Notes: a model not told the origin generated them from the letters alone. Numbered from the whole stretch's first letter, positions 22,261 through 58,343 are shown. The stretch is DNA of 59,341 nucleotides, filler included, from Jimgerdemannia flammicorona (GCA_003990765.1; 3 parts of 3 records of this genome joined end to end with filler, not necessarily neighbours in it), one strand, 5' to 3'. Made by a program: numbers and translations.

Positions 22261-22649
22261 TACTAGTATTCTATTAGTCATAGGATACTTTTTAGACTAT
22301 AAAAATCTCTCTTACTATATTATATTATATATATATATTTATATATATATAGATATTCCCAATCTATAAGAGGATTCTGTAGATTATATATATTACATTT
22401 TGTGGATATTTTGGATATTTTGGATATTTTGGATATTTTGGAATATATTTTGACCTATGAAAATTTCTTAGATATAGGATTTTATTTTTAATTTTTTGGG
22501 TTATATATAGTTCTAGTTTTTATATCTATTGTATTACTTTTTACTCTAGTTGTATTCTTTTTTTTTTGAGTTATATATCTTATTAAACAGAAGTATTGAA
22601 ATAATAACTTAATATATAAATATGTGATTAAACTATTTTATTAGTTTTA

Positions 22650-23400
22650 TATCATTCATTGGTAATATATGAAATTTATGACCTATACAAATACAATAGT
22701 TAATGAGACTTATTATTATATAGATATAGTCTGTAAGTTTCTCACTCTTATATATAACTACTACTATGATATTATATGCTCTCATATAAGGGTCAGAATC
22801 TTGTCTTTATTACTGATATACTCTATTGATATACTTAGAGAATTTATTTAATTTACTAGATCATTGATATAATTAGTATATTTATAGATACTCTCCTTAG
22901 ATTTTATTTATAGTTAAAATAGCTGAGATTTTAGATAGAATCTATTTAATGAGAATGCTTATACATAATGATTGTGTAGAGTCTTTTATATATTATAGAC
23001 TGTTATAGTATATATTATAAGCTTTATTTGCTGGTTTCATAATATAAAAGTAATCTCTTATAATACTTGATAATTATTTAGAGTATTGTAATCTTGAATC
23101 TACATATATCTGTAGTTTTATATATTCTGTCAAGCTGTACTTCTCTAGAAGATTACTCATATAGAATACTCAAATAGTATAATTATTACCATTAAAGATA
23201 GAAATTTAACCTCTTGACTGGATTATATTTGCTATAAAAACTATGACTATTATATCTGTTCCAGAAATACCTATGTCTACTGTATTCAGTATATTCATAC
23301 TAATTCCCTAGTTTATCTATACTAATATCTTGACATAGGGTCTTAGAGAGGTATTTCTTATTAGCTACTAAGCAGAGCTTATAACCTTTATTATAACTTA
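22650..23400 (-). mobile_element. Hypermutated Ty1/copia leader and gag remnant (boundaries approximate)
   Basis: Minus strand has aggttataagctc (decayed fungal copia GGTTATGAGCCC leader) followed by ISIFNGNNYTI*VFYMSNLLEK, resembling the copia gag N-terminal FNGxNYxxW motif. Confidence 0.55.
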
Positions 23401-23560
23401 GTTAAGTGAAGACTAAAGAAAGAGAGAGTAAAGCGGGGTATTGTTTATTATTTCAGATAGTACATATTTATATATTGAGTAATATAACTTAAAGATAATA
23501 TAGTTATATATATAAGTTATATATATAAGTTATCAAGATAATAGAAATTTCAAAAAATAT

Positions 23561-23760
23561 CACTCCTAGATCTGATTATCATCAACTAAAACTAGAATAT
23601 AAAGTTTAATCAAAAGAACTACCAATTTGGATGAGCTGCCAGGCACACCTATTACTATTTTATAAAATAGAAAGGATATTCTGAGTATGATACCACCTGG
23701 GAAAAAGAAGATAATCTTTTGCCAAATATAGAAGAAGTAGTAATCTGATATAGATATCTA
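23561..23760 (+). mobile_element. Chromodomain remnant, probably from a chromoviral gypsy integrase
   Basis: YYFIK*KGYSEYDTTWEKEDNL matches the chromodomain YLVKWKGY....TWE.E.NL motif, preceded by PDLII..LEYKV. Confidence 0.7.
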
Positions 23761-25116
23761 GTATAATGGAAATTCTATCAGAATTTCTGAAAGATAGCCA
23801 TGCTCTTGAATATTTCTAACAAAGAGAAGTATAAATAATCTAAATAATTCTATACTAATAATCCACTACAATATAAGTATTCAGCAAAGACATTGAGAAT
23901 AAACTAAGAATAAGATTATTACTACTGTTCTTATAACTATTGAATATTAATAGAATTCTACTAAACTATTCTCTGTCAATATATAAATCTCTAGAGACCC
24001 AGACCCAAATAAAGCTCAATAATGTCTTAGAAGAATCCAATATTTCCAGACCTTCCACTACTAATAAGAATTAAAGAAGTACTATAAGATCAGATATCTC
24101 ATCTATCAATAAGCTACTCTTAGTAGTACTAAGTAATAAGTCTGTCTTTTTATTAATAATTATATCTATATTATTGCAAAAGCTTTACATTTATTTCTAT
24201 ACCCAAGTCTAAGTCCTTGACTATCTCTATGAAGAATTTCCTGAGAACATCATTAATTTGAGTAATAAATAATAGAGTAATGTTTTTTTTAAATAGTTCA
24301 GTATATCTCTCTTCAGTTTGATAAGTGTTTAGAGTTTAGTATTAAATCTAATGAGTAGGTTCAGATAAAGAAAAAAAGGATATAATAAATTATTATATAC
24401 CTACAAGTTACTATAATATCTTATAGAAATTTTAATAGAAATTTTAATGGAAATTTCTATAAAATTTTTAACTAGCAGTTATAGATACTGAATATAGTAT
24501 AACTATATAGATATATCTAGTATACTATATTTAGTTATAGCTTTAAATTTATATAAATATCCTCTACACTGAGTATATTATAATCTCAGCTCTACTTTTT
24601 CTAAATATAAGAATAAAACAGTATTCATATTATAAAACTCTCAGATTTGACTTGTTAATAATTCTAAGTCTAATCAACTTGAGATATATGTATGGTCCTT
24701 TCATTAGTATAAGAACTCAAAAGCAATACTTAGACTATATCACTATAATAGATAATTGAAACTTAGTGCTTCCTCACAAGTACTTAGAACTTAGAGCTGA
24801 TAATTATCTTAATTATCTATAATATATTAATTCTATTAGAATATAGTTTTATTACAATATATATATATATATATTGTAACGGTGACTCCAGAATGATGAC
24901 ATCAGCACAAGAGACAGCCTTTTCTTGCAAGCCACCAGATCGAAGCACAAGAAGATCATACAGCATATGAGATGAGCAATGATGACCAACTGTGAGTCAT
25001 TGTGACCACAGCACAAGCATCCTGAAGATTATAAAAGAAGGATCAAGGAACCGCAGTAGCAGCAACCAACAAGAACCACTAATCCCAAAATAGCTCAAAG
25101 ACTTACCACAAACGAA

Positions 25117-25932
25117 ATGCCTGCTGCCCACCAAACCTCAAGGTCAAGGAACCACCAAGGTATCTCAGTTGAGGAAAGGATGTTCCAAGACATCAGAAGA
25201 GCCATGAGGACCCACTCAAGAAGGACTCCTAGTGTCTACCTGAGTACTGCAGACCCTTATCACTTTATTCTCTACCACCGTGAAATGGAAACAAGGATCA
25301 CCATCACCACTGAATGCCTCCAAATATAGCAGGAGTACGAAATAGGAAACCTCCTCTGCCGGGAGTTCCCACAGGCCAGCACCCAAGAGCTACAAGATGC
25401 CACTCCCATGGATATATGTGAAACAAGGACAGCTAAGAAGATCCATCAGATCTTCAGGTATGCACCATGGTTGATCCCCAACCTGGAGTATGTTAGAGTC
25501 TCAGACTTCAGAGACCTGTCATCCCGCCGCATCAATGCACTAGAAGCCAGGGTGGCTACAGAAGCCCAGTCCACTATCACCCTCAACAGCGAAGAAGTAG
25601 AAGACTTCTGGCACCCCATCCTTCAGGACAACCCAGACCAGTTCCTGCAAGGGTTGATCTCAGTATTCCAAGGCCCAAGCATCCGGGTTACATCCCCCCA
25701 AGACCCCACATTTGTCCCCTATTTTGTGGAAGAGAACCTCATAGACTGGAGAGCTCCAGATCTTGTTCCCGATTTTCCTGCCACTGCCGAACATGATGAC
25801 GTCATCGGCGATGACGTCATCATCGACATATGCGAAGCATACAAAAACGATGAATTCGCAGATCTCATCTCCTTCAGTGATGATGATGATGATGATGATG
25901 AAGCCCCCATGGTCCTGAACTTCCTGCTCTAA
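25117..25932 (+). pseudogene. 271-codon LTR-encoded ORF of unknown function with one in-frame TAG (ancestral TGG)
   Basis: ORF-track pieces 25117 and 25408 are in the same frame; the TAG at 25327-25329 is TGG (Trp) in copy 1 and in the family-C 5' LTR; acidic C-terminus. Confidence 0.88.
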
Positions 25933-25939
25933 GTTCTTT

Positions 25940-26066
25940 GTTACACTGGATAATGCCAGCACCTGTATTCTCATGTAACACCAGATAATGCCAGCACTGG
26001 TATTCTGAGGTGACGCGAAATTGTTCCAGCACCAGCATTTTGATGTGACACTAAATAATGCCAGCC
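25940..26066 (+). repeat. ~35-bp tandem repeats (x3-4) in LTR-B U3, enhancer-like position
   Basis: Recurrent (g/a)taacac..gataatgccagcac..gtattct units between the ORF stop and the TATA box. Confidence 0.6.
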
Positions 26067-26830
26067 TTGGAACTTAGTAGTTTTAGTTATTGAAATTTAT
26101 ATTTAGCTTTATATCTTAGCAACCATTGAATTATATTTTGTATAAATACCCCTCTTATTTCCTCTGAAATAAAGTCAGTCAAGTTCACCTACACACACTT
26201 CCTTGCAAGCAATCTAAGAGATAACAAGACAGTTAAAGATAAGAAGTTTGAGGACTATAAGACCTTGGGAAGGCACTCCAATAAGAACTTGCTTATAACA
26301 AACTTGAGTTAGTCTAAGAGATACACCTTAAAGAGAATCTGGCGTATTTGAAGAACTCAGCGACCACTACGTGACAATATATATAATAAGTCTACTATAC
26401 TCACTTCTAATTTATAACTATAAGTAACTGATTATTATATATCTATTAACTTATAATCTTACTTAATATTACTTATTAATTCTTGATTTAATGATAACAT
26501 ATTATATATATTATAATAATACTATTATAATAGAGTTCATTATTATTCTGAAATCTATTAGAGTAATATATATAAAAATTTCAAAATAAGCTTTCAGAGA
26601 GTACAACTATTATTTTAATTCTTTTTATAACTGACAAAACTTATATCAATATTATGAAATAAAAAAAGAACTTACTCTATATATTTTATAATTAGAAATA
26701 TTTATAAAGTTCAATAACAAATCTATTTTATAGATATATATATAGTTGTTGGCTATCTTCTTATTCTTACAGATAATGCTTTAGAGTAGAAAAATTGAAA
26801 TTTAAAGAAGATATTTGTATATCTGTCATA

Positions 26831-28350
26831 TAAGTAAGAGACAAAAATGAGTCAATATTATATAATTTTTACTTTATAAATTTATTATAATTTAAATATA
26901 AATATTATTAAATTGATACTTTAACCAATCATAAAGTAATCATTTATCTTTTAGAAAATATATAATTTATCTATATTTGGTTAATTAATTATATAGTTAT
27001 ATATTACTATTTAAAGTTAAATTAATCATTGGTCTATTTCATCTCTCACTATTTATTAAATCAATTTGTTAATATTATTTAATATTTTATATAAACACCT
27101 TTTACCTTATAGATAGCTACAACTCTCCTTAGTATATTATCTATTAAATCAATACAAACATCTTCTGAAATCTCATTCCATACTTTTTCTACTCTCTTCC
27201 AAAGTTCTTCAATTTCTTTGGGTAGTTCTTTATAAGAATTCAGCTTTCTCTTTAGATACTACTAAAGATATTCAATGGGGTTAAGATCTGGTGATTGTGT
27301 AGACCACTGTAACAAATGAATTTTGCAGTTAGAAAATCACTTCTTCACTATCTTAAATGTATGCTTAGAATTACTATCTTACTGAAATATTAATTTTTTT
27401 TTATTTATACCATAATCCTTGATGATTTCTTACAATTCATCATCAAGAATACTGATATAAAGCTCCACATTCATTCAATTGATAATTTGGCATATATATC
27501 TAATGCTATGGTATATTATATATATCTAAACTATCACTAAACTGCCTTCAAATTTGATAGTACCACTTATATGATATGGCTTGAGTATTTTTTCCAGCTT
27601 TTTCCAGGCTCAAGAATGTCTGTCCAACTCCAAATAGTTGATCTTTATCTCATCTGAGTAGATAACTCATTTTCAGTCATCAACTATCTAATCCTTATGT
27701 TGAATGGCAAATTCATACTATACTTTAATATAGTATAAAAGCAAATGTAGCTTCTTCTTTACTATTGTATAAAGGCTCACTTTTTGTAGTGTTTAGCATA
27801 TATATTATCTTTGGGCTAATATCAATGCCTATTTTGCCATCTTTATTATCTTTATATTCTTGAAGTACTTTTGTAACTTGGGTAGTATTGTCTATCTTAC
27901 TTATTATTATTTGATATACAATCCATATCTCATCTTGAGCAGAAAGCTTATGTGGATAGCCTCATTTCATAAGCTTAATATTGTTGTCATCTATATACTT
28001 CTTTTAAAAATATTTTACAGTTCTTAGACCAATCTTTATTTGTTGAGCAATGTTTTGAGTATTTTTGCTAGACTTTAATTCTCTGACAATATGATTGTAG
28101 ATATTAATAGAGAGTTTTTTCATTTTTGAAAAAAATGGTGCAAACTGTGAGAGAATATCCAAATAAATATATGGAAAAAGTTTTATTTATTTAGCATTAT
28201 TATTAAATAAATTATGGTATAAAAATATTAAGACAATAGTGAGGAACAAAAATGGGCCAATGATTAATTTAACTTTAAATTTAATAATATTTATATTTAA
28301 ATTATAATAAATTTATAAAGTAAAAATTAGTCATTTTTATCTCTCACTTA
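26831..28350 (-). mobile_element. Tc1-family DNA transposon (DD34E), hypermutated, with ~115-bp TIRs and TA duplication
   Basis: Termini taagt(a/g)agaga(c/t)aaaaatga inverted at 26831 and 28350 with TA on both sides; left TIR carries an ~95-bp insertion. Confidence 0.9.
27079..28123 (-). pseudogene. Tc1 transposase pseudogene
   Basis: KD*IVDD*K*VIYSDEIKIN; FQ*DSNSKH, then 34 residues from that D to the E of SPDLNPIE; C-terminal KGVYIKY*. Confidence 0.92.
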
Positions 28351-29101
28351 TACTTGAGTATCTGAAATAATCAGAACCTAAGAAAGAGATAATATAAGAA
28401 TCTAATAAAAGAGTATAACAGTGTTTTCTAATTATTTAATTCTTCTAAATAAATTATTTTAAGATATATTAGATCTATTTTATTAAACAAAGAACTAACT
28501 GTTCAATCTATACTATAAAGTATAACAAATTTACTGATATTACTAAGATATATCTACTATATAATATTCATTTAATATATCAAATTATAGAGAAGACTGA
28601 AACCTCAAAATATAGAGATATATATTATTTAAAGCAAATGAACTTTATAAAATGCATAATTCTTTCTGAAATTTATCTTGTATAAATTATATAATAGTTA
28701 TTAGAAGTATTATACTTCTTGAGATATTCTTCTTAGTATTATACTATATATAGTTTATATATCTAAAGCTTGCTTAGAGATATCTTTAAAAAGATCTCTT
28801 TTATCTTATTAAATTCTTTCAGAGATTAATTTTGTGATAATATCTTCAAAATCAGTGATATTAATTTTAGAAGACTGCTCAGACTTTGTAAGCTATTAGT
28901 TGTAAATTATAATCCAACTATGACTCATCTTGATTATAAGATGATCTACATCTAAACTCATAATGACTCATAATGACTCTAGTGATATACTATTCCAAAT
29001 TAGGTAACTCTACTCTCTGAACTAAAGAAGAAGACCCTCAAGATATAAAAGAAGCAATAAGAAAAAAAGAGCAAGATATCAAATAAGAGACTTATTATAA
29101 A

Positions 29102-30001
29102 ATGCCTACTATCTACCAAACAGTAAGATCAAGAAGCCATCCAGGCCCATCAGTTCAAGGATAAATATTCACCAATATCAAGAGAGTCATAAGGTTATAT
29201 AGAAAAAGAACTTTAAGCCTGAACCTCTATACAAGAGATCTCTACCACTATACCCTCAACTACTATGAAATGAAGATAAAAATTACCACCACTACTGAGT
29301 ATCTTTAGATGTGGCAAGAATATAAAAAGAGACATTACCTCTGTTAAGACTTCTCATAAGTCAGCTCTTAAAAAATTATAGATACTACTTGTATAGATAG
29401 ATATGAACAGAAATTAACCAAAAGAGTTCATCAGATCTTTAGGTATATATTCTGATCCATTCCTAATCAAAGTTTCTGATATTCAAGAACTAATAAGCTG
29501 TCATATAGACTACTTTGAAGAAATGGTTGCAGAAGAAGCCCAATCCTATCATCACATTTAAGAGTGATGAAATTCAAGACCTTTGGAACTCTATTTTAGA
29601 GAACAATCCAGACCAATTCATCTATAGTTAATTGTACTATTTTAAGACTCTCTCTTGAAAGTCTACTTCTCTCAGAATTCTACAGATATTTTTTACTTTA
29701 TGAATGACAATACTATTGACTAGAGACCTTAAGAGTAGAATGACTATATGCTCTTTGATAATATCATCAACAATAATATCACTCTATAAAACAACTTAGA
29801 GAATAGTGGCAACCTACTTATTTTACTAGAAGATGATATCAACAGCTTCTTTTCCTCACCCCCAGAGCCCCTCACTGACTTCAGCACAATTGTAGAGGAT
29901 GTAGAAAATGATTTAGTCAGACCCCCAGAAGAGAAGAAGAATGAGGATAATATAATCTCAGTTATATTAAATGAGGATGACTCTATTAGCCAAATTAATT
30001 A
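29102..30001 (+). pseudogene. LTR-encoded ORF homolog in the family-C 5' LTR (end approximate)
   Basis: MPTIYQTVRSRSHPGPSVQG*IFTNIKRVIR...YEMKIKITTTTEYL*MWQEYK...ILENNPDQFI...FMNDNTID*R, colinear with the LTR-B ORF; repeated from ATG 39270 in the 3' LTR. Confidence 0.8.
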
Positions 30002-30181
30002 AGTTAGTTAGTTAGACAAATAATAACTGTGAATTAACTAGCCCAATTTATCATAAATATAAAATTAGTCTTATTAGTTAATTAGTTATCTGAATTTCAA
30101 AACAATATTAATTAGTATCTTCTAGTAATTATAGGTTATAATAAATTACCTAGTATTATATATAGTTTGAAAACTATATAA

Positions 30182-30644
30182 TGTAATGTAGTGGATACTT
30201 AACTGTAGTCAGATTTCTGTATCTTGAAAACATAATCTTCTTTGACTCTGTAGAGTTCTTAGGATACAGGGGTGGGTAAGTTCAAAATGTATCTGTCTGC
30301 AGGCTTACTAGTTTTTTTGCTTTCTCTTTACTTTGAACTATTTTGATCTGAGGTTTATTCACTCTAGATACTGGAGATATTTATATAAGTTTGCTAGCTA
30401 TAAGGTGGTTAAATTATGACTATGTTATGAGTCACTTTTTATAAATATTAATCCTTGATATCTATTAAATATTGATGATTATCAAGACTTTAACATTTGT
30501 AAATTCTTGATATTTGTGAAGAGTTTAATGTTGTGAAATAACTGCTATTTATATGGCTATACTATATCAGGAATTGAGTTCAGATACTGTGATCAAATAT
30601 CTAATTTCTCTGATTCTTATTCCTAATTCAGATCAACTGTCACA
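30182..30644 (-). mobile_element. Family-A solo LTR inserted into the family-C 5' LTR, TSD ATAA
   Basis: Reverse complement of 6559-7016 end to end; ATAA at 30178-30181 and 30645-30648. Confidence 0.92.
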
Positions 30645-33600
30645 ATAAATACTCCCTCTGATCTATAGTAAATAAACCTCAATCAATTGGTTTTACCAAC
30701 TTAAGTTCTAAAAGACAAGAAAGTTGAGTGTAAGAACTTTGGAAAAAGTCTCCAAGAGCTGAAGAATTTACTCTTATTGCTACTAAGAAACTTGAGATAT
30801 AAGTCAGTCAGATTAAGATCACTATAGAAAATTAGATATAAGATCCAAAAAACTCAAGATATAAGTTAGCCAGATAAAACTACTATAGAAATCAGATATA
30901 AGACCCAGGAAATCTACCAGGAAACTCAAGAACAATATGTGATATAAGTGATTACTTCTTTTGATATATAATTCAAATGATTATCATATGATCAACAACT
31001 TGAGATATGTGAACTTCAACTTGATATAAATAAATCAAATAGCAGTTAAAACAAATATTGAGCCAGAATATTATTTGATAAGAAGATAAATAGTATATAG
31101 ATATCTAGTAACATATTGAGCTATATATCTTTTTAGCAAAATAAGATATATAAATCAGATACTATATTTTGAGGACTCAACTGGAAAAGGTTTCTAAAAA
31201 CTTAACTATTTGGCTTAAGAAGCCAGTAGCTATCTATAGTGAAGAATTCAGAAGAAACTAGCCAACAGTAAGACTAGGGCCAATAACTATCTACTTTAGA
31301 AAGAAAAGCTCACACCATTGCCAAGATAGTCCAGAAAACTGAATCAGAAAAAAGAAGTGATACAAATTATGGTTTGACCTTAAAGAAAAGAAAATAACTT
31401 AGAGGACAACTTGAGTCTTCTAGATCTAAAGCCCAGAACAAGGAGAATATTTTTCTGGAGAATATCAGACTCTAATCTACAGAAGAGATTTAGACAGAAG
31501 TGACTACATTACTACTATCATCACTCAAGCTACTCTATTAGATTAAGCATATTTTGTAATATTAGAAGGAGAAGAAGACTACTATCCTTACCTTTTAGAA
31601 TAAGAGAAAGATAATAATTAAAGAAGTCAACCAGATTACTCAAGAGACAAATTCAATCTTTATTACTACTTAGATAGTAATATAGACCCTTGGCAAGATG
31701 AACAGAACTCTGCTGCTTCATAATAGCAAGGGGCAGATAAACTGAACATTAGTTACATCATTTCAATTCCAATTACCAGAATCTCAATACTCTGGTCCTT
31801 TATACTCCAATACTATCTACAAGAGACAAGAAGCTCTAGCCCTCTCAGTACCTCAGTATTTAGTGACCACTATCACTCAATTAGAGAACCACTACCATAA
31901 GAACATCTATCTCAGCTTTAATTAGAAGGGCCAGACTCTCTATACTCTCACTAAGACATCACTTTTTGCCAGTACTACCAGTTCATTAAGTATCTCTACC
32001 TTCTCCATCTTTATAAGAATTATTAAGAAACTCAACCTCAGAACCAAACTCAGACATTGAAGATAAATCAGATATAAGCTATCTTCAGAAATTCTATAGT
32101 ACAGATAGTGAAGATATTAAGAAATTCTTTGAAGAATTTGAAGTATAAGTAGCAGTAAAGCAGTAAAATATCTAAAAAAATCTCAGAATTGTAGAATCAC
32201 TTCTGAGAGGTCTTGTTCTACAGAAGTATAATCAAGTAAAGCAAATTGAAGGAGATATCTATGGAGCAGAACAAGCCAATAACTTTTGAGTAAATAGAGA
32301 CCATGTGAATAGATATAATATCTATAAAACCTGGCTCTACATATAGTTTAATGGTCTTGAGCACTAATAGGAAGTATAAGAAGCTTTAATCTACATGAGC
32401 CAAGCCATCAATTAAACTCCAAAGACTTCTACTATTAGATTCAAGCTCAAATAATTAAGGCAAACTTGCAATCTATAGTCTAACTAGCCCTGGTCTCAAC
32501 TATCTTCCTCAATGGAATATTTTCAGAGCTCTAAAGATAAGTCATTAGAATAGGCTATTGAAGTATTAAGCAGTAAGTTGCTGAAGTATATAGATGCTAG
32601 AAAGTAGACTATAGTCTATTCCAGCAAGTATAAGAATATTAAGAATCAGCTCAAGCTGAAACCTTAAGGACTTATAGAACAACTATATAAAAAGAGAATA
32701 TCTACTTGAGAGCCCTATTGGCCAGCTGTGAGACCAGACTCCCACCCCCAATTCCAACTCAATACAGGTAACAACAGCAGCCTCTACTAAGAATTCAAGA
32801 AGATTTCATAATAATACTCACTAAACAAATAAAAGGTCTGACCATTGTGATTGCCCAGTTAAAGAATCAAGGGAGAAGATAACAAGATTATTATTAAGAT
32901 AATAGACCAGACTATCAGTAGTAAGATAACTGGATTTCTACTTAGACCCCACTAGTTATAACCATAGATTTATCAGCAATAGGTTCTTATACTCTAACTT
33001 ACTTTAACTGTAGAAACCAAGGTTACATTCAGAGGTTTTGTCCAAAGAAACAAACTTCATCTAATTATAGAAATATCAACCTCATTTAAGTAGATGAAGA
33101 GACTTAAGAAATAGAAGTAAAAGCTATCTGACTTTATGGCCAAAAGGATACCTATCTATACCATGAAGTCTTTCTCTCTAAGATAACTTAGGATATAGTA
33201 TCTATACAGACTAGAGAATGAGGAAGACCTCTAAGGACCCTGCTTCTACTATCATTGCTAGTAACCATATCTACCAACAAACATCTAAGATATGGTCATT
33301 TCTTCTTAGATACTCTTTAGGAGAAAGATAAGAGAGTCAGAAGAGATACCCCTGAACCAGAAGCTGGCTCATCAAGAGTATTGAGAAGTACCTCTCTGCC
33401 TGACCTTGAAGAAAAAGAGCATATAAGTATAGAGTCTTTAGCTGATAAAATACCTAATAAAAATGAGAGGATCTACTATAAGAGACCTAGATATTGAAGG
33501 AGTAGTAAGCTCTATGAAGCAGCATCACTTTGAGAATATCACTGTACTCAGAATATAGATCTTACAGTTGAACAAGTCCTTAAGAATATACTAGAAGTTA

Positions 33601-35179
33601 GATAAAAATTCCTGAAAAAAGCCAAAGATGATACTAAGAGAATCTTTGTCCAAGAACTATATATACTGAAGCCTAGTACTATCTATATAGTTTATGAATA
33701 TTAGCACTAAGAACATCAATCCATAAGACTAGTTAATAGAAAAGTATATGGTAAAAATGTCAGAATCCTTGTTGATACTGGAGTAGCTATTTACATCATC
33801 ACCCAGTGAATATTAGAAATAATTGAGTAGAGAATTAATAAAGGAACCAAAGCAAGTGTTATCAGGGCAGATGGATCAGTATCCACCTCTCTTGGATTAG
33901 TTAGAGAAATATCTATACAAGTTGGAAAGATCTGCCTCAACATATCTTAAGCTATCATAACTCCAGAAACCTCCTATGATCTGATTTTGGAAACTGACTA
34001 GTTGCATCAAGTTGGAGCCAATATAGATATATATTAAGAAACAACTCCTGGTCTTTACCTTCTATAAACAAATGTACAAGATACCAATTGAGTCAAAAAG
34101 ATCAAGAAGAGCAAGTCAGACCTCTAAGATAGAATAATAAGGACATAGAGATATATTTACTACTACAGAAGATAAAAGTGAAGCAAACTTCCTGTAAGAA
34201 TTCAGAAGTGATTTTGGTATCCCTAGAGACTCTGGAAGTAGTTAAGATCTTTTTGTTGAAGTTATTAATACTGAAAGCCTAGAAGTAAGTACTGATTTGG
34301 CTATTAGCAAAAAAGTAGTACTTGAATTTACAGAACTATCTATATACAATTACCCCCTCCTCTGAATTATATGAGCTATCTGCCTAGGTATGTGTGAACC
34401 CTACAATCATTTCTACTTACTAAGAGATGATTATAGCAACTGCCAAATCCTTGATCTCAAAAAGATTTCAATACTAGTAATCAAAAACAAGGATGAGTTA
34501 AAATGAGCCCCAGTCCACAGATAAATACAACTACCTACTCTAAAGGTTTTCAAGAAGACCTACAAGAAAGAACAAAAGATTCTCTCTCACCAATCTTTAG
34601 AGATCCTCACAATTAAAGACAATAACAATAGTATCTATACTATTATCTGAGCCCTCCTACCTATCTATGATAAATATCAAAAGAGATACCCAACAAGTAA
34701 GAAAATCAAATAGCAGAATGAGAAATTCATCAAAAAAGAATACTGTGATTGTGAAAAGACCTTTATTTATTACTGGTATGAAAATCAAAGTGTCTATCTC
34801 AGTGAAGATACCTACAAGAGCCAAGTTAAGAGAAAGGATTCCACCTTATAAGAATCTTGAATTTGCTGGGTCTATTGGAAATATAAAGAGATCAACTATG
34901 AAGGAGACTATAAAGTCAAGAACAAGATCTCCATCTGGGACCTATCATTAAAAGTTCTTGCCATCATTAATTGGTATTGCTGGCTACACCATGACAGACA
35001 AGGAGTCAACCTTGTCTTTACTTTCATAAAAGCCTCAGATCTACTTAGAAAAAACTGAATTTACCTATACAAGAAACCCAAAGACTAGAGTATATTGGTC
35101 ATTCTTTAAGTCTGAATGTATAGAGTTCTCACCTATAGTAGCAACTACTGAAGTGATATTTCTCAAGACCCAGCCAATC

Positions 35180-35584
35180 ATTTAAGTTAAACCACTATCA
35201 TCTTAGGTACAACCTCCTCTTATGCAAATAGAAGAATTAATAGAATATGACCTCTGACTTCTCTATCAGGCGATACTCTATCCTAGGACAACTTGGACCT
35301 TTGACCATTAAATTACACTTACTATACCATTTAGACATTATAGATAACTAGTATTAAGATCATCTCTAGCAGTCAAAGAAATTACAGTAAAAGGAGGAAA
35401 TATTGATCAGGATTATTGAGGTCATCTGAAGGTCATTATTTACAATAATAATAGAAATCACTAAGTCTTCAACCCCTTGGAGGCCATCTGTCAAATTCTA
35501 TTTATTAAGATATTGCAACCTATTATTCAAGAGGTAAATCAACTAGACAGTACTAAGAGAGAATAAGGAGGTTTTGAAAGTACC
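35180..35584 (+). pseudogene. dUTPase domain inside family-C pol
   Basis: IEYDL (AGYDL), RSSLAVK, GGNIDQDY*G, AICQIL, KRE*GGFEST (RG.GGFGST). Confidence 0.88.
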
Positions 35585-38500
35585 AATAGAACTTCTCAAC
35601 TACCACCCATTAAAGTCTACTTAGCAACAGTAGCTCAGTTTCAATAAATGAAACCATATATCTATCTGAGCAAGAGAAGATATCTTCCTTCAACTATATC
35701 AAATAAAGAAGCCTTGATATATCTACCTGAGGATACCAATAACTGGATATTCGAGCCATCAATAAAACTCCAAGAAAAGTATCACCTCCTTCTGGCTGAA
35801 GAATGAATCCAAGATCAGATATCACCAATTTACATTCCTATCCAAAACCTAGACTTTGAAGTAGTAACAATTCTCAGAAAAATAATATTAGGATATTTTG
35901 AACCACTGATAAATACCTATGAGAAAGAGGTCTTTAAATTTTTAGAAAACAGCAAGCTCTCTCAAGTGAGACTGACAGTATCAGAGAGGAAGACTCAGCA
36001 ATCAAAACTATCAATATCAAGACAACTCTGATCAAGGATCAGTAATAATAGATTCAGAAGTTGATAGAAGAATATAAAGATATATTTACCACCATATATA
36101 ATAACTTTCCACTATATAAATTTAGAGAATATGCAATATATAAAAAGATGTCAAACCAATCCAATAATATTCCTGCTGAATACCATACTACTTGATTGAG
36201 TTTGAATAATAATATATAGATGAAATGCTATGAAACAGAGTTATCAGACCCTCATCAAGCCCCTAGGCTTTACCAGCAATTATAGTATCAAAGAAAGGAG
36301 AATGAAGACTAGTTGTAGACTTTAGAAAACTTAACAAAGTTACTATAGAAGATATCTACTCACTGCTAAGAATTGATGACCTCCTCAATGTTTTTGACAA
36401 AGCCAAGTACATAACTACTACTGATCAGTTTTAAGGATTTCAAGTGATACCTATTGCCAAGAATGATATCTGCAAGATAGTCTTCATCACTAGATGAGAA
36501 CAGTATAAATACCTCTAAATGTTATTTAGACTCTACAATGTACCAGCCTCATTCTAGTAAATAATGAACTATATCTACTAAGACCTTATTAAAAGAAATA
36601 TACTAGTATATATAGATAATATAATTATCCACTTTGAGACATTTGAATAATATCTATAAAGTATTTGATACTATCCAAAATTCAGGACTCAGACTTAATG
36701 CCAAGAAATACTTCTTTGGAAAACACTAAATCAAATATCTGGGATATGTAATTTCAGCCCAAGGAACTCATACTGACCTGTATAAGGTGGAGAAAGTTAA
36801 GAATTATTCAACTTCTATCTATACAACAGAAGTTCTATTTTTTCTTATATTAGTATCTTATTACTGGTGATTTATCCTAAGATTTTCAGACAAGACAGCT
36901 CCACTATATGATATCTCTAAGAAAGAACAACTATTCTACTAGAGAGAAGAATAGCAGAAGTCATTTGACCTACTCAAGAAGGCCCTCACTGAAGCTCCTA
37001 TTTTAGTATAATTAGACTTTAATAAACTATTCATCTTGGCAACTGATGTCTCTACCCTTAGACTTAGATCAATTCTATCTCAACAAGATAACTAGAAGAA
37101 GAAATATATTATTGAGTATTCTAGTAAGACTACTAATAAGATATAAGCAAACTATGAAGCCACTAAGCTGAAATACCTTATAATAGTATGAGCTATAGAT
37201 CACTTCAGACACTATCTCTTAGGAAAGAGATTTGTCCTTATCACTGACTACTAAGCTCTATAATAGTTGTTCAACAAACCAGAGTCCTCAGGAATCTTTG
37301 CCAGATGGATCATGTCTCTATAAGAATACCAGTTCACTATTATCTATAAGAAAGGTGTTAAGAATTCCAATATTGATATCTTGTCAAGGATCCTATGAAC
37401 TCAATAAGAAGAGAAGAAGTCACCTTGAGAGAAGGCTGCTTCCCACTTACTCAAATGAACCAAGAACTACACCTTGCCCTCACCTGGAGTATGTATTATA
37501 GAAATTTCAAAAAAGGAATTTAGCTGGCTCATAAGCTGTTTATTCAAAGAAATTTCAAAAAATTTCAAGAAGGTGATGACAAACTTTAGAGAGTAGAAGA
37601 AGATCGATATCTGAGTTCTATAAGAAGATGAAATACTGAAGATACTTATAACTAATTATGATCAGAATATATACTGAGGAATTGGAGTCACTATTGCAAG
37701 AATTAAGAAAAGATACTGATAGTCAAAAATGAGGAAATAAATTTTGACACATATTTAACAATATGATATCTGTCAAAGATACCAATAGAAGCCAACTGAT
37801 AAAGTACTACTAATGCCAATTCCAGTATCAGCTGGAGCCTTTTAAAGACTAGAAATAGGCATCATTGGTATCTTACTAATAACTAGTTAAGGAAGATGCT
37901 ATATTCTCACCATTGAAGATCATCTGACAAAATGATCTGAAGCCTTTATTATTAAGACTACTGATGCTCAAACAATTATTGAGATTCTATATAATAAAAT
38001 TTTTAGCCACTATAGTATTCTCAAAGAAATCATCATAGACCAAGACTGAGAATTTATCAATAAAGCCATGAAGATCTTTGCAGATAACTTTAAGATCAAA
38101 CTGCAACTAATAATAGCTTATTATTTATAAGCAAATAGACTTACTAAATGAATGAACTAGACCATCAAGCAAGGTCCCAGCAAAACTAGAGATTAATTAA
38201 ACTGAGATATTTATCTTTCAGCAATCTTATTCAGTATCTACACTTCAAAGATGACTGCTACCCAACAGACCTCTTTCTATTTAATATATAGCTAAGAAGT
38301 ATATATAAGATTCCACTAAACCAATCCAGCTGGATTTGGCAAAACAAGTTACTGAAGAGATCATCTGGTTATATAAAGTATGCCAACAAGTATGAAAATT
38401 TATTATTAAGACATAAGAACAATAAAAGAAGTACTATGACTACAAGGCTGATCTTGAATCTCTGCTTATTAGATAATAAGTCTTAGTATACTATACTATT

Positions 38501-39011
38501 ATAGAAGAAAACTAGAAAAAAAAAAAAAATAGAAGGAAACTAGAGTGTCAAACTCAATCTGAAATGGGAAGAACCCTATCTTATATATTAGGGATTCACA
38601 AATCACACCTACTAACTCAAGATCCTAGATGAAGTTATACTCAAGACCAAGATACACTGTAACTATATAAGATCTTACTACTTAGTAGAAGTAAACCACA
38701 TTTGAACAACTTCTTTTACTCAATCTATATCATCTTTATTGAAGAATGATGGATGCTTCTTTTAGAACTCAAGAAGCTGACAATACTGGAACTATTCTCA
38801 AGCCTACTATATAATAGATATTACTACTAGAAAATGCCTCAGATTATAGAAAAATCCATTTCTGAGAGATTCAAACCCCCAGCTGTAACAATGAGAGCCC
38901 TCACCCTAGAATAGTCAATCCTCACAAATATACTAATAGTTTATTCAATAAAGGAATCAAGACCTATTATTCTTATATAATTATCACTGCTTTAATTTTG
39001 TAAGAAGCAGA

Positions 39012-39532
39012 TGTGATGATATCTTTAAAACCAGTAACATTAGAATTCAAAAAACTATCTAGACTTTGCAAGCTATTAGTTGCAAATTATAACTCAACTA
39101 TAACTCATCTTGATTATAAGATAATCTGCATCCAAACTCATAATGACTTATGATATACTACTTCAAATTAGGTAACCCTACTCTCTAAACCAAAAAAAAA
39201 GACTCTCAAGATATAAAAGAAGTAATAAGAAGAAAAGTGCAAGGTATTAAATAAGAGACTTACTACAAAATGTCTGCCATCTATCAAATAGCAAGGTTAA
39301 GGAGCTATTTATGCCCATCAGTTTAAGAACAAATACTCACTGATATTAAGTAGGCCATGAGATTATATATAAGAAGGACTTTAAACCTAAACCTCTATAT
39401 AAGGGATCCCTATCACTATACTCTCAACTACTATGAAATAGAGATAAGAATCACTACTGCTACTGAGTGCCTTTGAATATAGCAAGAATATAAAAAGAGA
39501 TATTACCTCTATTAAGAATTCTCTTTTTTTTT
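39012..39532 (+). repeat. 3' LTR of family-C element, truncated
   Basis: Aligns to 28833-~29355. Confidence 0.9.
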
Positions 39533-39632
39533 NNNNNNNNNNNNNNNNNNNNNNNNNNNNNNNNNNNNNNNNNNNNTTAATTAATTAANNNNNNNNNNNN
39601 NNNNNNNNNNNNNNNNNNNNNNNNNNNNNNNN
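39533..39632. other. Artificial contig linker N44-TTAATTAATTAA-N44
   Basis: Identical 100-bp linker. Confidence 0.97.
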
Positions 39633-42166
39633 AAAAAAGAGTCCGTGTCAAGGTTTCCGCCGCCAATAATTATCTGGCTAAGCTCGTTGAAAGCAGACTT
39701 TATAATAATAAAAGCTATATAAATATATTATTTATAGATTTTATATTATGATTACTTCTAAATCTATTTTACAGAGTGTATAATTATATTATAAATATAA
39801 AATATCATTAATATTATATATTATATTTTATATACATAATAATATTATTATTATAATTTTATATTTTAATTTTTTATTTATATATTTCAATAATGTTAAT
39901 TTATATTACTTATATATTAATTTAGATTATAGTATTGAAATCTACTTAAATCCTATCAGATATTAAATATATATTATTATGATCTTAGCTCTGAGTCTAT
40001 CACTATTAGTTTTTATTATTTTAATCTAACATCTGATCTCATCCTTTTTAAAATATTTTATTATACTGATTATCTTATAATTTGCATCTGAAGCTCAGAT
40101 AGCTATCATGTAAATAGAGCCTTTAAGAACTAGATATAACTATTCTTCAATAATGCTATTTTTCGATAATAAAGATGTAAATACTGTATTTGGAACAATA
40201 TTGGAGTAAACATTTGTCTTTATTTTGAGGGGTTTCTTTAGTGTAACAACTCTCATATTTTCATTTGAAATAAGGATGCATTAATGTATGCAACATCAAT
40301 CTACAAAAATGCTCTTTTTGGTCTCTTGGACCCTTCAGACTTACATCAATCGCAAAAGTTCGCAGTCGGCTTCCACACATACAGTTCCCATCGCACTTCT
40401 CTTCGATGTTTGTGTCATACGACCTGTTATTTGTGCGACTCATACAGGGGTGTCGAACCGTGTCTCGCGTTTGACACGGTCCATTTAATACGTGGCGACG
40501 GGTTGATTGGCTGGAAATTCATCAAATCCGTGGGGACGTTGGATCACGAATACAATGTGGACTATGGTATTAGTAATATACGTACGCTTCCCTTTTGGCC
40601 CTAGTTCACATAAATGAATTTTTGTTATAAAATACAATCAATGTTCGCTCTCTGCCAGCTCCTGCATCTGTCACCAAATATCGATGAGGGGTTTTGTTTA
40701 TGGCGGCATTCTGACTATACAATGAATCTTTTGCAACCATGGATCTTCAAATGGTAACATTCGAAAGCATTCCATGCGTGTCTACGTTTATGTGACACAA
40801 CGTCTTGGGCACGGTGGGCGCGCCGTGCGCCTAACCTAAACATTACGTACAATGTATGTCTTTGTTGACTACTTATTTGTATTCTGTAGTCGCTCTTTGT
40901 GTAATCACGTGATGTGAATTTTTTGGTGTTGGCCGCACAATATGGTTAATCATTTTTCATCGTCGTATTGCAGCTCATTATAGTCATTCCGCAGATAATC
41001 TTCAGTCCTCCTCTTTCTCCATATTTTTACATGGGATGGAGATGCCTCTATCAGCACGGGAGCGAGACCGGGATAGACAAGTCCTGTCCCATTTGGAGTA
41101 CTGAATGCGACATCTGCAGCATCGCAGTGCAACATATATCACAGGAAGTAGGGCTAGCCTGACAGTTATTGCGAAGACAATAGGCATGGCCTTAAAAAAA
41201 ATTACTCTATCTGCGTATTGGCTCCAGTCGACTACCTGACATAGTCACAGGCCCCTACTAATGCTTTGAGCAGCTGTTACCGAGTTAATGGCCACACAAT
41301 TATGCACCGACGATGCTTTGGTGACACCAACATATGTATGCACACTGACCCTGTGAAGAAATACAATGCTGACAACTCTTTCTAATTAGGCGGCGCCAAG
41401 CTCCAACCACCGACATAATTCCAAACTGCTGCAGGGCTAAGACTGGTCATTGGGCACATTTGTTGTTTGTGAGTCATTCTCAGATGCCTTCAGAGCGACC
41501 GATTTGATTGTCTTGGCGCAGTAGGCCCTATTTTTTGTATATATAATTTCATGGCATGTCACTTGATTCCGTGAAAACCTGTTATGGAACCGGTTTTGTA
41601 CACGAAAAAAAATTGGCGTAAGCTATGTCTAAGTCGCGACAATGCATCCGGTGCCGGTTTGGTAACAATCAATCCGAAAAACCGGACGGGAAGCGTCCCG
41701 TCTGTAAATCAGGTTACATAGGAATGTAAATAATCAAGGGCAAGGGGAAGTGCTCCCGCAAGAACCCGACCCAATCTGACCGCCTTTCCATCGTTCCTGT
41801 CAGAATTTAATAATTTTTTGATGCTAGAAAGGTGTACCAGCAGTGGTTCTAATATCCTTTTTTTAATTTTTATTTTCAAATTCGGATGTCGCGTCGAGAA
41901 ACCGGTAAACGTTCAATTTTTCTAGTCATGACCATCATGGCTTGTAACTCATCCGAATTTGTATTAGGAATGGAGGCAACATTCGTGAGAAATGATCCGA
42001 AACCCAACGCGACCATGCAATCACCCCCAGATGAACGTAAATAATGTCATTATGACGACTTTTCTCGATCCTCCCAGGCTTTTAAAAGGGCCGCGCTTGC
42101 TGCCGTATTACTGAACCATATCTCCAAAATCACAAAACAACTCCTGCAACTACAAAAATCTTAGCA

Positions 42167-42604
42167 ATGACAGTTGAAAAGAGCCTCCTCGTCGTAGATA
42201 CCCGCGTCAAGTTCAAGCCCACTGGCGGTAAACCCGAGACTACCGGAACGATTAAAAGGATCAACCCTGTAAGCATAACCTAATGTTTGATGGACGTAAA
42301 CAAGACTTTTCGTTTCTTCATACCCAAATATCTGCGAGCTTAACCTCGAATGTATTTATTGATAACATATCTCAATTCATTATAATTTCCTCTAGGACGG
42401 CAGATACATCATCACGGACGACAGTGGTACAGATCATGGCAAGTGTTGGCTAGGCTGTTCGGTTTATTCACGTGTTGAGATGTGTGCGCTTTTTAATAAA
42501 AGCTGCATCCACCCACCTTAAATTGACCTCTCTAATTCGATCTAACAACTTGATTTCCCATCTAATTAGGGGTCGAGTGGGAGAACATTATCGCGAGGTT
42601 GTGA
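42167..42604 (+). CDS. 59-aa three-exon Tudor/SH3-fold-like protein, paralog 1 (exons 42167-42268, 42396-42438, 42570-42604); resembles Hva1_TUDOR/DUF2945 fungal proteins
   Basis: Spliced: MTVEKSLLVVDTRVKFKPTGGKPETTGTIKRINPDGRYIITDDSGTDHGVEWENIIARL. Exon sizes 102/43/35 and phases are identical to paralog 2; TATA-like tttaaaag upstream; intron 2 has a GC donor. The family assignment is from recalled motif resemblance. Confidence 0.82.
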
Positions 42605-43368
42605 AATGATCTGTTGGAGCATACGGCAGTTGACGTTGCGAGAACACACTTTATGTTTACTTAGCGTAAATTTTTATGTGAACTAGTGGTCGGGATTAAA
42701 ATCGCTGTTAGTTGCGAATGGGTTTATTGGGATCATTCAATAAAATGAATTGATGCTAGGCATTACGCGAAATTTGCCCTGTGGTGCACTATTTTTTCCA
42801 GTAAGCGGAGAACCTGATATGGTGGTTGCTGGAAATTGACCTAATCCAGTGGAGAATTTTAACTTCTTTAATGTTTTGCAATGACAATATAGTAATAGCA
42901 ACCTTGCAAACACTCGAAGACCCCTAGGAGGGTAGCTTCTAATAGTCGTCAATGATAATTGTTGTTGCTGTTGCCTTTGCAGTATTTTATAATTATATAT
43001 TATGGATGTCTTTTAGCACATTGATTCAGATTGTGGTGTTGGAATCCCGCCTAACGAGAAGTTCAACATGACCTTGGTTCTAAAATATTTACCTTTATTT
43101 TGAGAATTTCCTTTAGTGTAACAACTCTCATATTTTCATTTTAAATAAGGGTACATTAATGTATGCGACATGAACCTACAACAGTGCTCTTTTGTATCTC
43201 TTGGGCCCTACAGACTTGCATCAATCGCGAAAGTTCTCAGCCGGCTTTCAAACATATAGTTTCCATCTCGCTTCTCTGGACGTTTGGATGCATATCCGCA
43301 TCGAAGTTTGCGTCATACAAGCTGGTTGTTGCGCATGTTACTTTAACGACCACGATCAATGTTCACCC

Positions 43369-43806
43369 AGGCGCGCCGCGCGGTCTTGGGCGCTCGGCAC
43401 GGTGGACGCTTGGGCGTGGAAAAATATCCTGTCTTAGGCGCGCCGTGGTCCTATCTTAGGCGCGCCGTGGTCCGCCGTGGTCCTGTCTTAGGCGCGCCGC
43501 GCGGTCTTGGGCGTTCGGCACGGTGGACGCTTGGGCGTGGAAAAAGTATCCTGTCTTAGGCGCGCCGTGGTCTTGGGCGCTCGGCACGGTGGACGCTTGG
43601 GCGTGGAAAAGGTATCCTGTCTTAGGCGCGCCGCGCGGTCTTGGGCGCTCGGAAAAAGTATCCTGTCTTAGGGGCGCCGCGGTCTTGGGCGCTCGGAAAA
43701 AGTATCCTGTCTTAGGCGCGCCGCGCGGTCTTCGGCACTCGGCACAGTGGACGCTTGGGCGTGGAAAAATATCCTGTCTTAGGCGCGCCGCGCGGTCTTG
43801 GGCGCC
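43369..43806 (+). repeat. GC-rich modular minisatellite (9 copies of an aggcgcgccg core, units ~20-68 bp)
   Basis: Modules aggcgcgccg(cg)cggtcttgggcgctcgg / cacggtggacgcttgggcgtgg / aaaaa(g)tatcctgtctt recombined in variable order. Confidence 0.93.
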
Positions 43807-44357
43807 TGACCTTAACAATACGTGCAATCCGCAGGTTTGACTCTTTGACTTATGTGTATGCTGTAGTTCTATTTTGTGTAACCACGTGATGTGATTTTTG
43901 GTTGGCCGCACAATGTCGTTAATCACCGTTCTGAGATTAATCAGTGGTTAGTTGTCATTCTTTGGTTCATTTTTTTATCGTCGTTTTTCAGCTCGTCATA
44001 ATAATTCTGCAGATAATCTTTATCCGCCTCTTTTCCCATATTTTACATGGGATCGAGATGTTTCGATCACCATGGGAACGAGACCGGGATAGATCGAAAC
44101 AGGACACGAAAAAAAAATGGCGTAAGCTATGTCAATCGCGACAATGCTTTTTTTTTCAAATTCGGATGTCGCGTCGAACCGGAAACCTCCGAACCCCAAC
44201 GCGGTCACGCAATCGCCCCCAAATAAACGCAAATAATGTCATTATGACGAGTAGTTACAATCCTCCCAGTCTTTTAAAAGGGCCGCGCTTGCTGCCGTAT
44301 TACTCAAGTATATCTCAAAAATCACAAACAACACCTGTAACCACAAACCCTTCAACA

Positions 44358-44766
44358 ATGACAGTTGACAGAAAATTACTCGTAGAAGGCGCTTCCGTCC
44401 GGTACCAACCCCCCGAGAACAAGCCTGTTTCTACCGGCAAGATTACGCAGGTCTTCTCTGTAAGCATAACCCTCATGTTCGCAGGACGTAGACAAGAATT
44501 TCCGTTTCCTTATTCGTTGATGACATCTCAATTCATTTTAATTTTCTTTAGGACGGGAGATACCTCGTCAAGGACGACAAGGTTGGAGAGTATGGTAATT
44601 GTTGGCTAGGCTTTTTTTTTTTTTTTTTTTTTTTTTTTTCTTTTCCTCCGATGTGTGCGCTTTTTATTCAAAGCAATACAAACTAACCTTAAATTGACCT
44701 CTCCAACAAACCGAACTTTATTCCCGTCTAGGTGTCCCGTGGGAGAGCATTCTCGCGAAGCTCTGA
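44358..44766 (+). CDS. 59-aa three-exon Tudor/SH3-fold-like protein, paralog 2 (exons 44358-44459, 44552-44594, 44732-44766)
   Basis: Spliced: MTVDRKLLVEGASVRYQPPENKPVSTGKITQVFSDGRYLVKDDKVGEYGVPWESILAKL. Canonical GT-AG introns; same structure as paralog 1. Confidence 0.85.
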
Positions 44767-54749: not shown

Positions 54750-55663
54750 CTTATGGAATTTTAGGGATTTCAATGTAAAATTTATACTCCTTTTGACAAA
54801 CTGTAATTGAAGCATCAGACATTCCAAGAACCTCCTTCACATGTTGGTACATGCGACGGAACAACCATCATCACAAACGCAACGACAACACAAAAAGGGA
54901 GTAAAATCCCCGGACGTTGACAGGCTGAACCAGCTGGACATGCGTTTTAATTTGTTTTCCAATTGCTGGAAACCGCAATCGCATTCTGGATTCTGAATGC
55001 ACTCGAATCCAGTCCAGGATTAATACTGCGAGAGCTCGTTAACTCCGTCGATGAACCGCAGCCGTGCCGCCTGTATCTCGACCCTTGTCTCAAGGCTCAG
55101 CCGCTTATACCCTTGCCGACGGCCCAGTTTTGCGTAGTCTTCAATTACCAGCGCAGATGAGTCTCTATACGCTCTCGGCAGCAGATATTTGTCTGCTAGC
55201 AGTAACACCTCCAACGGCCTTTCTTTGAGATCCCTTGCGAGCAGAAAGTCGCACATACGCAAGATCCGTGGGAAGTGGTATCGGTTCGCCAGCTTCAGGA
55301 TTGTCTCCACGTTCTTCAATCTCTGTTGTGCAGGTATAATGTCGAGAGGAGCAACTCCACGTCGCGTGGGTTGGCCTCGTCTACTCGGACACAGGCGATA
55401 ATACCAGAGTTAGCACCAGTCGCTGTGTAGTCTTGGTGTGGGCAGGCGTTGTTGTTGTTCTGGGGGTCTGTCTCGCTCAAGAATTCGGGCAAGAGGTTTT
55501 CGAAGTAGGAGGACGAAAGGCGGAGGATGCTGGCATGGACACGAAAATGGGCGTTATCCACGCAGAGGATCACGTTGCCATCGTCGTAATAGTGGTTGGC
55601 CCTAATTTCGGGCTTGACGTGTGAGGAAGTTGATAGGGCAGTGGTTTTCATAATGTAACTCAT
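54750..55663 (-). pseudogene. BTB/POZ-domain gene, frameshifted (end approximate)
   Basis: YYDDGNVILCVDNAHFRVHASILRLSSSYFENL BTB start; frameshift at ~55318 with no GT-AG intron, then KNVETILKLANRYHF..LLLADKYLL; in-frame stop at 55020-55022 with coding-like sequence beyond. Confidence 0.75.
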
Positions 55664-57962: not shown

Positions 57963-58343
57963 TTATGTAGGCATGGTGGTTTCGAGTTCGGGAATATAGG
58001 GGTGTTTGGACGCGACATGCCTCTGCAAGATCTCCGGAGACTTGAAAGAGTCGAAACAAGTTAAGCAGGGTAAGTCGTCCGGCAACGGCGCCGGGCAAGT
58101 CATTGTGTGCCAAGGCCACACAATCTCGGGCACAAGAATACCGCAGCGCTTGCAAGGCGATGGGTGTGAAGGACAGATCTGCAGATGCCCCTCCACTTCT
58201 GCTCGGAGTATTCGATGGCGGCAAAGCCTGCACACAGGATTTCTCTTGGGGCAGTGAAAGCGCGTATGGGTGTTGAGGCTGGGTTTCAGGGTGAAGGAAG
58301 CTGAGCAATCAGGGCAGCGGAAAAGAGCTGTATCCGTGGACAT
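57963..58343 (-). CDS. 126-aa multi-zinc-finger protein (C2H2 plus TRAF-like C2HC fingers)
   Basis: CPDC..HTRFHC, CRLC..HLQIC, CKRC..HTMTC, CLTC..HVASKH; ATG 58343 just downstream of tatat. Confidence 0.75.
   Translation of the reverse strand: MSTDTALFRCPDCSASFTLKPSLNTHTRFHCPKRNPVCRLCRHRILRAEVEGHLQICPSHPSPCKRCGILVPEIVWPWHTMTCPAPLPDDLPCLTCFDSFKSPEILQRHVASKHPYIPELETTMPT

Follow-up and report, generated by a model that had tools for sequence, protein, structure and literature searches.

Two very small genes of Jimgerdemannia flammicorona, A and B, differ more in an exon than in the non-coding DNA around them, which raises the question of whether their proteins have been driven apart by selection or released from it. 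They lie on the third contig (39633-59341) of the window, the whole stretch of 59,341 nucleotides analyzed here, which consists of three contigs joined by N runs and comes from a genome of 231 Mb in total. Both genes are real, are under-annotated, and represent a derived variant of a known family. As originally predicted, A (42167-42604) and B (44358-44766) are three-exon genes of equal length and identical intron phases (0 and 1), each encoding 59 amino acids, and a recount reproduced the reported identities of 26/59 residues between the proteins and 60/102 nucleotides between the first exons; exons 2 and 3 share 32/43 and 27/35 nucleotides, respectively. The parts of the two genes are as follows.

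42167..42268, plus strand: gene A exon 1 (34 codons), from the model and an RNA joint (42268-42396) in 4/4 runs
42269..42395, plus strand: gene A intron 1, 127 nt, GT-AG, phase 0, from the model and the RNA joint
42396..42438, plus strand: gene A exon 2, from the model and RNA
42439..42569, plus strand: gene A intron 2, 131 nt, GC-AG, phase 1, from a 131-nt skip in RNA in 4/4 runs
42570..42604, plus strand: gene A exon 3 up to the stop codon, from the model and RNA
44358..44459, plus strand: gene B exon 1, the site of the divergence peak versus A and C, from the model and an RNA joint (44459-44552) in run X1
44460..44551, plus strand: gene B intron 1, 92 nt, GT-AG, from the model and the RNA joint in run X1
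44552..44594, plus strand: gene B exon 2, its end placed by homology with A and C
44595..44731, plus strand: gene B intron 2, 137 nt, donor GTAATT, with a 33-nt T run, from the homology model
44732..44766, plus strand: gene B exon 3 up to the stop codon, placed by homology

Splicing was checked in RNA contigs from four of the five listed runs. Both introns of A are joined in all four, two of which are soil metatranscriptomes recorded as RNA, and the joint at intron 2, whose position is free by 2 nt, fits GC-AG. For B, the predicted splicing was recovered at intron 1 in one of the four runs (X1) and at intron 2 in none; these data are contigs and the T run is skipped there, so the absence of this joint from the four runs proves nothing. 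The database model of B (P0003) ends exon 2 a few bases earlier and has a frameshifted tail of 68 aa. Because intron 2 has no joint and P0003 uses another donor with a shifted frame, the last exon of B was placed by homology. One X1 contig on the 5' end of B (window 44328-44434) has 10 differing letters in 107, and the six listed differences of the B-like contig amount to V3I, A12T, S13P, and one silent change; another B-like contig of this run has an in-frame one-codon insertion in exon 2 (44572). In run X1, no differences appear in the listed contigs of A or in the block upstream of B. A second B-like locus was not found in the genome assembly, and the X1 transcript may represent a second allele or an unassembled paralog.

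A and B are paralogous, but the proposed two-gene duplication is too narrow, as the two belong to a larger family with at least 10 loci, comprising a canonical gene, F, its frameshifted copy, G, and eight derived copies. Searches of the genome itself yielded the eight loci beyond A and B (C, D, E, F, G, H, I, and J), and the counts are lower bounds (PF11160 candidates, n=5; L011-L013, with E > 1, left out). All 10 loci have the same three-exon plan and phases. Eight are intact and two are broken, G by a frameshift (103-nt exon 1) and H by the loss of its start. GC-AG boundaries at intron 2 occur in A (42439) and J (L037), which are not sisters in the trees, and GT is used in the other eight loci; D and I stand head to head on one contig (L034, G000:C15541), with about 1.4 kb between their promoter motifs. 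F has 68% identity to an Endogone protein and 31 to 43% identity to its own paralogs, and in each of A, B, C, D, I, and J, the flanks and intron cores match those of F better than 300/300 shuffles. The B protein is 32 to 34% identical to D, E, I, and J and 43 to 44% identical to A and C. As was predicted for A and B, no signal peptide is evident: in a crude check, which is not a dedicated predictor, the longest hydrophobic run is 3 to 4 residues in A and B and 2 to 5 residues across all eight intact copies, none of which has a cysteine.

Database proteins identical to C, D, and E, plus the variant model of B, are labeled Jimgerdemannia flammicorona, and among the 79 matches of a word-limited protein search, derived-type proteins carry no label but that of this species. 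A word-based protein search with A exon 1 and six upstream codons gave no candidate, which at its low sensitivity is not evidence of absence, and the equally insensitive search with full-length C returned C itself only. The database model of F (P0020; L009/L017, G000:C5861) has 99 aa, with 21 extra residues from intron 1; the splice model of F has 78 aa, equal to the length of the Endogone homolog. The family is under-annotated: a protein search whose query included the first exon of A did not return this gene, and for both B and F the database has a model at odds with the splice model.

The predicted kinship with Hva1_TUDOR (PF11160, formerly DUF2945; the renaming is given in PMC6324024) is supported by profile hidden Markov model (HMM) scores and by the evidence of descent from F. 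Exon 2 of F alone scores 27.7 bits against the PF11160 cut-off of 24.1, and full-length F passes at Pfam, where full-length C, D, and E and the database model of B have no PF11160 match; exon 1 of A and of B, as partial queries, each matched 0 families, and UniRef names C as an Hva1 TUDOR protein. An HMM was built from 66 PF11160 proteins not labeled Jimgerdemannia, with the query members and 8 matches that lacked the Pfam label or came from this species left out. It gave 16.0 bits for A, 12.7 for B, 23.5 for C, 25.5 for I, 22.8 for J, 8.5 for D, 9.1 for E, and 119 for F, compared with shuffle maxima of 7.8 for A and 4.5 for B (4.5 to 7.8 for A to E), and the match lies mainly in the N-terminal half. 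Likeness to Hva1_TUDOR (Tudor clan CL0049) and to Hva1 of Cryptococcus neoformans (4P5N) consists of descent from a canonical gene in the same genome, an N-terminal G/D-x-V-x-Y/F plus TG-x-I pattern, a five-stranded barrel in the model of C, and the lack of a signal peptide. HVA1 is also described as having three exons (PMC5008624), a likeness in exon count only and not in intron positions.

Unlike the family, whose members have about 75 to 80 aa, the derived copies have 54 to 61 aa with near-neutral charge, and they are multi-copy and fast where F is slow. Of the 27 positions conserved in at least 70% of the 66 homologs (median of members, 25; minimum, 14), F has 24, and the derived copies retain 9 to 11 (10 each in A and B), mostly core residues, so that 16 to 18 are lost. 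The TG and R motifs are 12 to 16 residues apart in the derived copies versus 28 to 32 in 63/65 homologs, the remaining 2/65 being short as well, and the loop that the derived proteins have lost spans 13 to 18 residues. A and B did not pass the conserved-position test that includes this loop and the C-terminal N-x-x-T-x-K-E-T-A-Y-K motif, and they are therefore classed as a derived variant rather than as canonical Hva1_TUDOR members. Short-loop Hva1-like proteins were also observed in Sphaerobolus and Pisolithus (P0091, P0082, and P0083), so the loop has probably been lost more than once. For D and E, an MS_channel_2nd identity (Pfam, 19.9 and 22.1 bits; cut-off, 20.2) was read as a likeness of small beta-barrels and was rejected, as D and E lack a membrane segment and are descendants of F. 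A degenerate exon-2 pattern matched five loci in metagenome contigs, at least three of them labeled gut metagenome, which were taken as chance, and two one-mismatch matches to the start motif lie in unrelated DNA.

The Tudor/SH3 fold proposed for A and B is supported on a predicted model of paralog C, which is 67% identical to A and 43% identical to B, and not on A or B themselves. The AlphaFold model of C, made from a six-row alignment, has five strands and a pLDDT of 89. Tudor barrels were its best Foldseek matches (TM about 0.7; best E, 1.9e-3, with none at E <=0.001), and 4P5N ranked 48 (TM 0.62); VIA gave tied Z scores of 8.1 to 8.4, with rmsd values of 1.6 to 2.3 over 52 to 59 residues. 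ESM Atlas searches gave SH3/Tudor-like leads only (0.79 to 0.82 for A exon 1; 0.90 to 0.91, with TM 0.7 to 0.8, for C), and neither of two PDB sequence searches, one with F exon 2 and one with a canonical homolog, had Hva1 among its matches. As predicted on C, the derived copies keep the Tudor/SH3 barrel, and by analogy with this model exon 1 of A would form strands 1 and 2. The fold of the model resembles the Tudor/SH3-like barrels of PHF1/PHF19, TDRD3, PSHCP, and PWWP, but the match is generic, with tied scores, and methyl-lysine or nucleic-acid binding is unsupported. A binding role is most likely, judging from the modeled fold.

The non-coding block described as about 85% identical between the two tandem units (40218-40400 versus 43093-43275) is indeed so (156/183). 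The non-coding features of the units are as follows, with strand given where one applies.

40208..40402, no strand: A-unit copy of the duplicated upstream block (the 85% block), from sequence comparison
43083..43277, no strand: B-unit copy of this block, marking where the second tandem unit starts, from sequence comparison
42081..42099, plus strand: putative TATA-like core promoter motif of A, from a pattern match
44273..44291, plus strand: putative TATA-like core promoter motif of B, from a pattern match
43369..43807, no strand: GC-rich tandem array with 66-, 44-, and 22-nt periods upstream of B, from sequence analysis

The 85% block has three copies, which share no long ORF, and is among the best-matching pieces of the units; only 1356/2875 bases of the A unit align to the B unit. 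Proximal non-coding DNA of A and B is 83% identical in aligned columns (441/534), which corresponds in simulation to about 0.2 substitutions per site, so gap-alignment bias is not the cause of the high flank identity. CpG context was also considered as the full cause of the gap between exon and flank and explains only part of it, the non-CpG difference being 0.36 in exon 1 versus 0.15 in non-coding DNA. The promoter pattern was found before A, B, C, D, H, and I (6 matches; reversed control, 2). The GC-rich array contains many GGCGCGCC sites; elsewhere only one unit occurs, upstream of C, and a dispersed element was rejected, the array being local only. RNA-contig cover is low from about 43098 to 43818 in runs X1 and X2, a region in which X2 has a 233-nt skip that may reflect a copy-number difference. 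Elsewhere in the window, 21001-40000 is AT-rich (GC of 0.21 to 0.34 in most bins) with few long ORFs and probably consists of decayed repeats, and ORFs downstream on the contig of A and B (55316-55663 and 57963-58343, minus strand) gave a BTB/POZ match (26.6 bits, over the cut-off) and C2H2 zinc-finger matches (under the cut-off).

The claim that exons diverge faster than flanks holds for exon 1 and not for exons 2 and 3, whose identities (74% and 77%) are near the non-coding level. The excess in exon 1 separates B from A and C, and the first exons of A and C are 81% identical, as are their flanks. B differs from both A and C at 29/99 sites of exon 1 versus 42/495 sites of proximal non-coding DNA (p 1.5e-7), and a window scan found 21 B-unique sites within 60 sites, a number reached by 0/5000 permutations (p 0.09 for A and 0.64 for C in the same scan). 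The exon-1 peak is more than chance. Polarization with D, F, I, and J placed 13/25 B-unique exon-1 sites on the stem of A and C (13 versus 12) and 8/34 non-coding sites on the same stem (8 versus 26; p 0.03 versus exon 1), an excess that fits a burst after duplication or a conversion of flanks.

A sharp peak of this kind is what episodic positive selection would leave if exon 1 were a specificity surface driven apart between B and the ancestor of A and C, with conversion possibly homogenizing promoter and introns and with an intracellular antagonist or a host protein as a possible partner. A local divergence peak amid gene conversion is described as a signature of neofunctionalization (PMC2588116), and the core promoters of A and B, 91% identical to each other versus 81% to C, point the same way, as does the B-like variant in X1 with its three replacements and one-codon insertion. 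However, approximately unbiased (AU) tests rejected no topology at 0.05 for exon 1, for exons 2 and 3, or for non-coding DNA, and gene conversion is not demonstrated, because the B-C flanks are as close as the A-B flanks. No antagonist or partner was identified, and the proposed molecular conflict is unproven.

Between A and B, dN is 0.43 and dS is 0.58 (pN/pS, 0.80; 95% bootstrap, 0.51 to 1.31); the non-coding distances are 0.17 to 0.29. The codon site models find no class of sites above 1. By codon likelihood on A, B, and C, dN/dS is 0.59 overall, 0.36 in exon 1 (below 1, p 0.008), and 1.49 in exons 2 and 3 (p 0.49), with branch values of 0.24 for A, 0.99 for B, and 0.58 for C, and M2a is no better than M1a (p 0.62). 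Across seven derived copies and 53 columns, with the gapped loop columns dropped, the alignment there being uncertain, dN/dS is 0.47 under M0 (below 1, p 2e-4); M1a fits, with 44% of sites at 0.18 and 56% at 1, and M2a (p about 1) adds no class above 1. Simulated site tests detected 14/14 sets with 15% of sites at 5 and 8/14 sets with 25% at 3, so the power is full for strong selection and partial for moderate selection, which leaves room for an episode.

In a joint model of coding and non-coding DNA, synonymous sites evolve 2.35 times as fast as non-coding DNA (p 0.003), and dN/dS is 1.33 for B (not above 1, p 0.44), 0.30 for A, and 0.38 for C. When the ratio of synonymous to non-coding rates is fixed at 1, that is, if the flanks were neutral, dN/dS for B rises to 3.1 (p 4e-5), but the data reject the neutrality of the non-coding DNA. 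Because synonymous sites run about 2.4 times faster than flanks, a result for this family, the flanks are not a neutral yardstick. The pair F and G leans the same way (synonymous, 0.168; non-coding, 0.098; p 0.16), and UTRs and introns are reported to vary less than synonymous sites in fission yeast and a Colletotrichum species (PMC4128662 and PMC4202328). Clean four-fold sites among A, B, and C (5/13, 5/19, and 3/13) do not differ from intron cores (21 to 24%), and second codon positions exceed intron cores in B-C (23/58, p 0.02; A-B, 21/59, p 0.12), so codons with multiple hits account for part of the high synonymous rate. Diversifying selection, which had been concluded from exons outrunning flanks, is accordingly not supported: dN/dS is 0.47 with no class above 1, the B branch stands at 1.0 to 1.3, and synonymous sites outrun the flanks.

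These values bear on episodic selection from both sides. Its case is strengthened by the inequality of branches in the joint model (p 0.001) and by the intact frame and length of B after about 0.36 non-synonymous changes per site, and it is weakened by a B dN/dS that does not exceed 1 and by the exon-1 value of 0.52 on the B branch, beside the low overall value of this exon; we regard it as a rather unlikely explanation. Venom and venom-related multigene families offer a parallel, in that tandem paralogs differ more in coding regions than in introns, and they are reported to show dN/dS above 1 in pairs or domains (1.74 and 1.54; PMC6609765) or in a mature domain, with a synonymous rate equal to that of introns (PMC2651877). 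Unlike those families, the genes here have dN/dS at or below about 1, synonymous sites that outrun introns, and no leader peptide or cysteines. Judged by what marks diversifying toxin, effector, and immunity families, neither a dN/dS significantly above 1 (for the gene, a site class, or a branch) nor a secretion signal or cysteine scaffold was found.

The exon-1 branch of B is long in both synonymous (0.80) and non-synonymous (0.42) distance, as would be expected of a neutral mosaic in which exon 1 of B, or of the ancestor of A and C, came by copying from an older paralog that has since been lost or is missing from the assembly, and so has a deeper genealogy than the flanks. A faster coding rate in B with a single dN/dS fits about equally well (AIC of 3308.4 versus 3307.7), and B-like sequence is present in RNA and absent from the assembly. 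However, none of the 10 loci is a donor, B being closer to A and C than to D, E, I, or J, and the topology tests again reject nothing, which makes this origin distinctly unlikely.

The B-branch value of 0.99 could also mean that B is a decaying copy on which selection has ended and which is not yet broken. The intron-2 donor of B is off the family pattern and is accompanied by the long T run, the database model uses another donor with a shifted frame, and two other members of the family are already broken. This reading is nevertheless very improbable: the 59 codons contain neither a stop nor a frameshift even though the branch of B is the longest, B keeps its core residues and as many conserved positions as A, a B-like transcript is spliced at intron 1 in X1, and neutrality cannot place an exon three times further from its paralogs than introns are.

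Overall, the tests point mainly to loosened constraint and not to a proven arms race. The explanation that we favor, with confidence about evenly balanced, is a birth-and-death subfamily descended from F, with its fold kept, its surface released, and its flanks constrained. The lineage-specific expansion started from F, an ordinary Hva1_TUDOR gene that remains conserved; following duplication, the derived copies lost the long loop that lies between strands 2 and 3, together with the conserved surface motifs, and retained the residues that would hold the five-stranded barrel. Selection would maintain the fold at the constrained sites and leave the others to drift at close to neutral speed, most rapidly along the branch that separates B from A and C. 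Synonymous sites outpace the promoter, short introns, and UTRs, which are presumably constrained, so that fast proteins look faster still beside their flanks. The products would be small binding modules of the cytosol, without enzymatic activity, that have probably lost the canonical Hva1 partner. The concentration of divergence in one exon is not predicted even by relaxation and counts against this explanation, as do the four-fold and second-position counts, the excess of changes on the stem of A and C, and the B-like variant in X1.

A further reading, which we consider unlikely, is that the derived copies are diversifying intracellular binders built on a stripped-down Hva1 barrel, with exon 1 as a specificity face kept distinct, and polymorphic at B, by selection from a partner such as endobacteria or viruses. 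Endobacteria occur in Endogonales. Jimgerdemannia is described as hypogeous, with fruiting bodies packed with zygospores, and as a putative ectomycorrhizal partner of Pinaceae (PMC5729711). If selection on exon 1 is real, it would suggest a conflict inside the cells of an early-diverging mycorrhizal fungus, and if the proteins are diversifying binders, they would form a cytosolic family of micro-protein recognition molecules not described in the literature found. Among the literature matches listed for PF11160 or Jimgerdemannia, none describes this expansion.

Among the matches listed, the experimental literature on Hva1_TUDOR consists of one study, in which deletion of Hva1 is reported to cause hypervirulence in mice and a TCA block, with a suggested link to NADP (PMC5008624); the NADPH/TCA link is described there as indirect, coming from metabolomics and structural likeness. 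In other reports, PF11160 is one of the domains enriched in the sexual development of Podospora, and it is down-regulated in soil fungi of drylands. The family of A and B provides a clear case in which proximal non-coding DNA is a poor neutral yardstick. Hva1_TUDOR is widespread, and this genome offers a natural series from canonical F through the intermediates I and J to the stripped A, B, and C, in which residues that hold the fold can be told apart from the conserved surface, so that the binding function of Hva1_TUDOR becomes testable.
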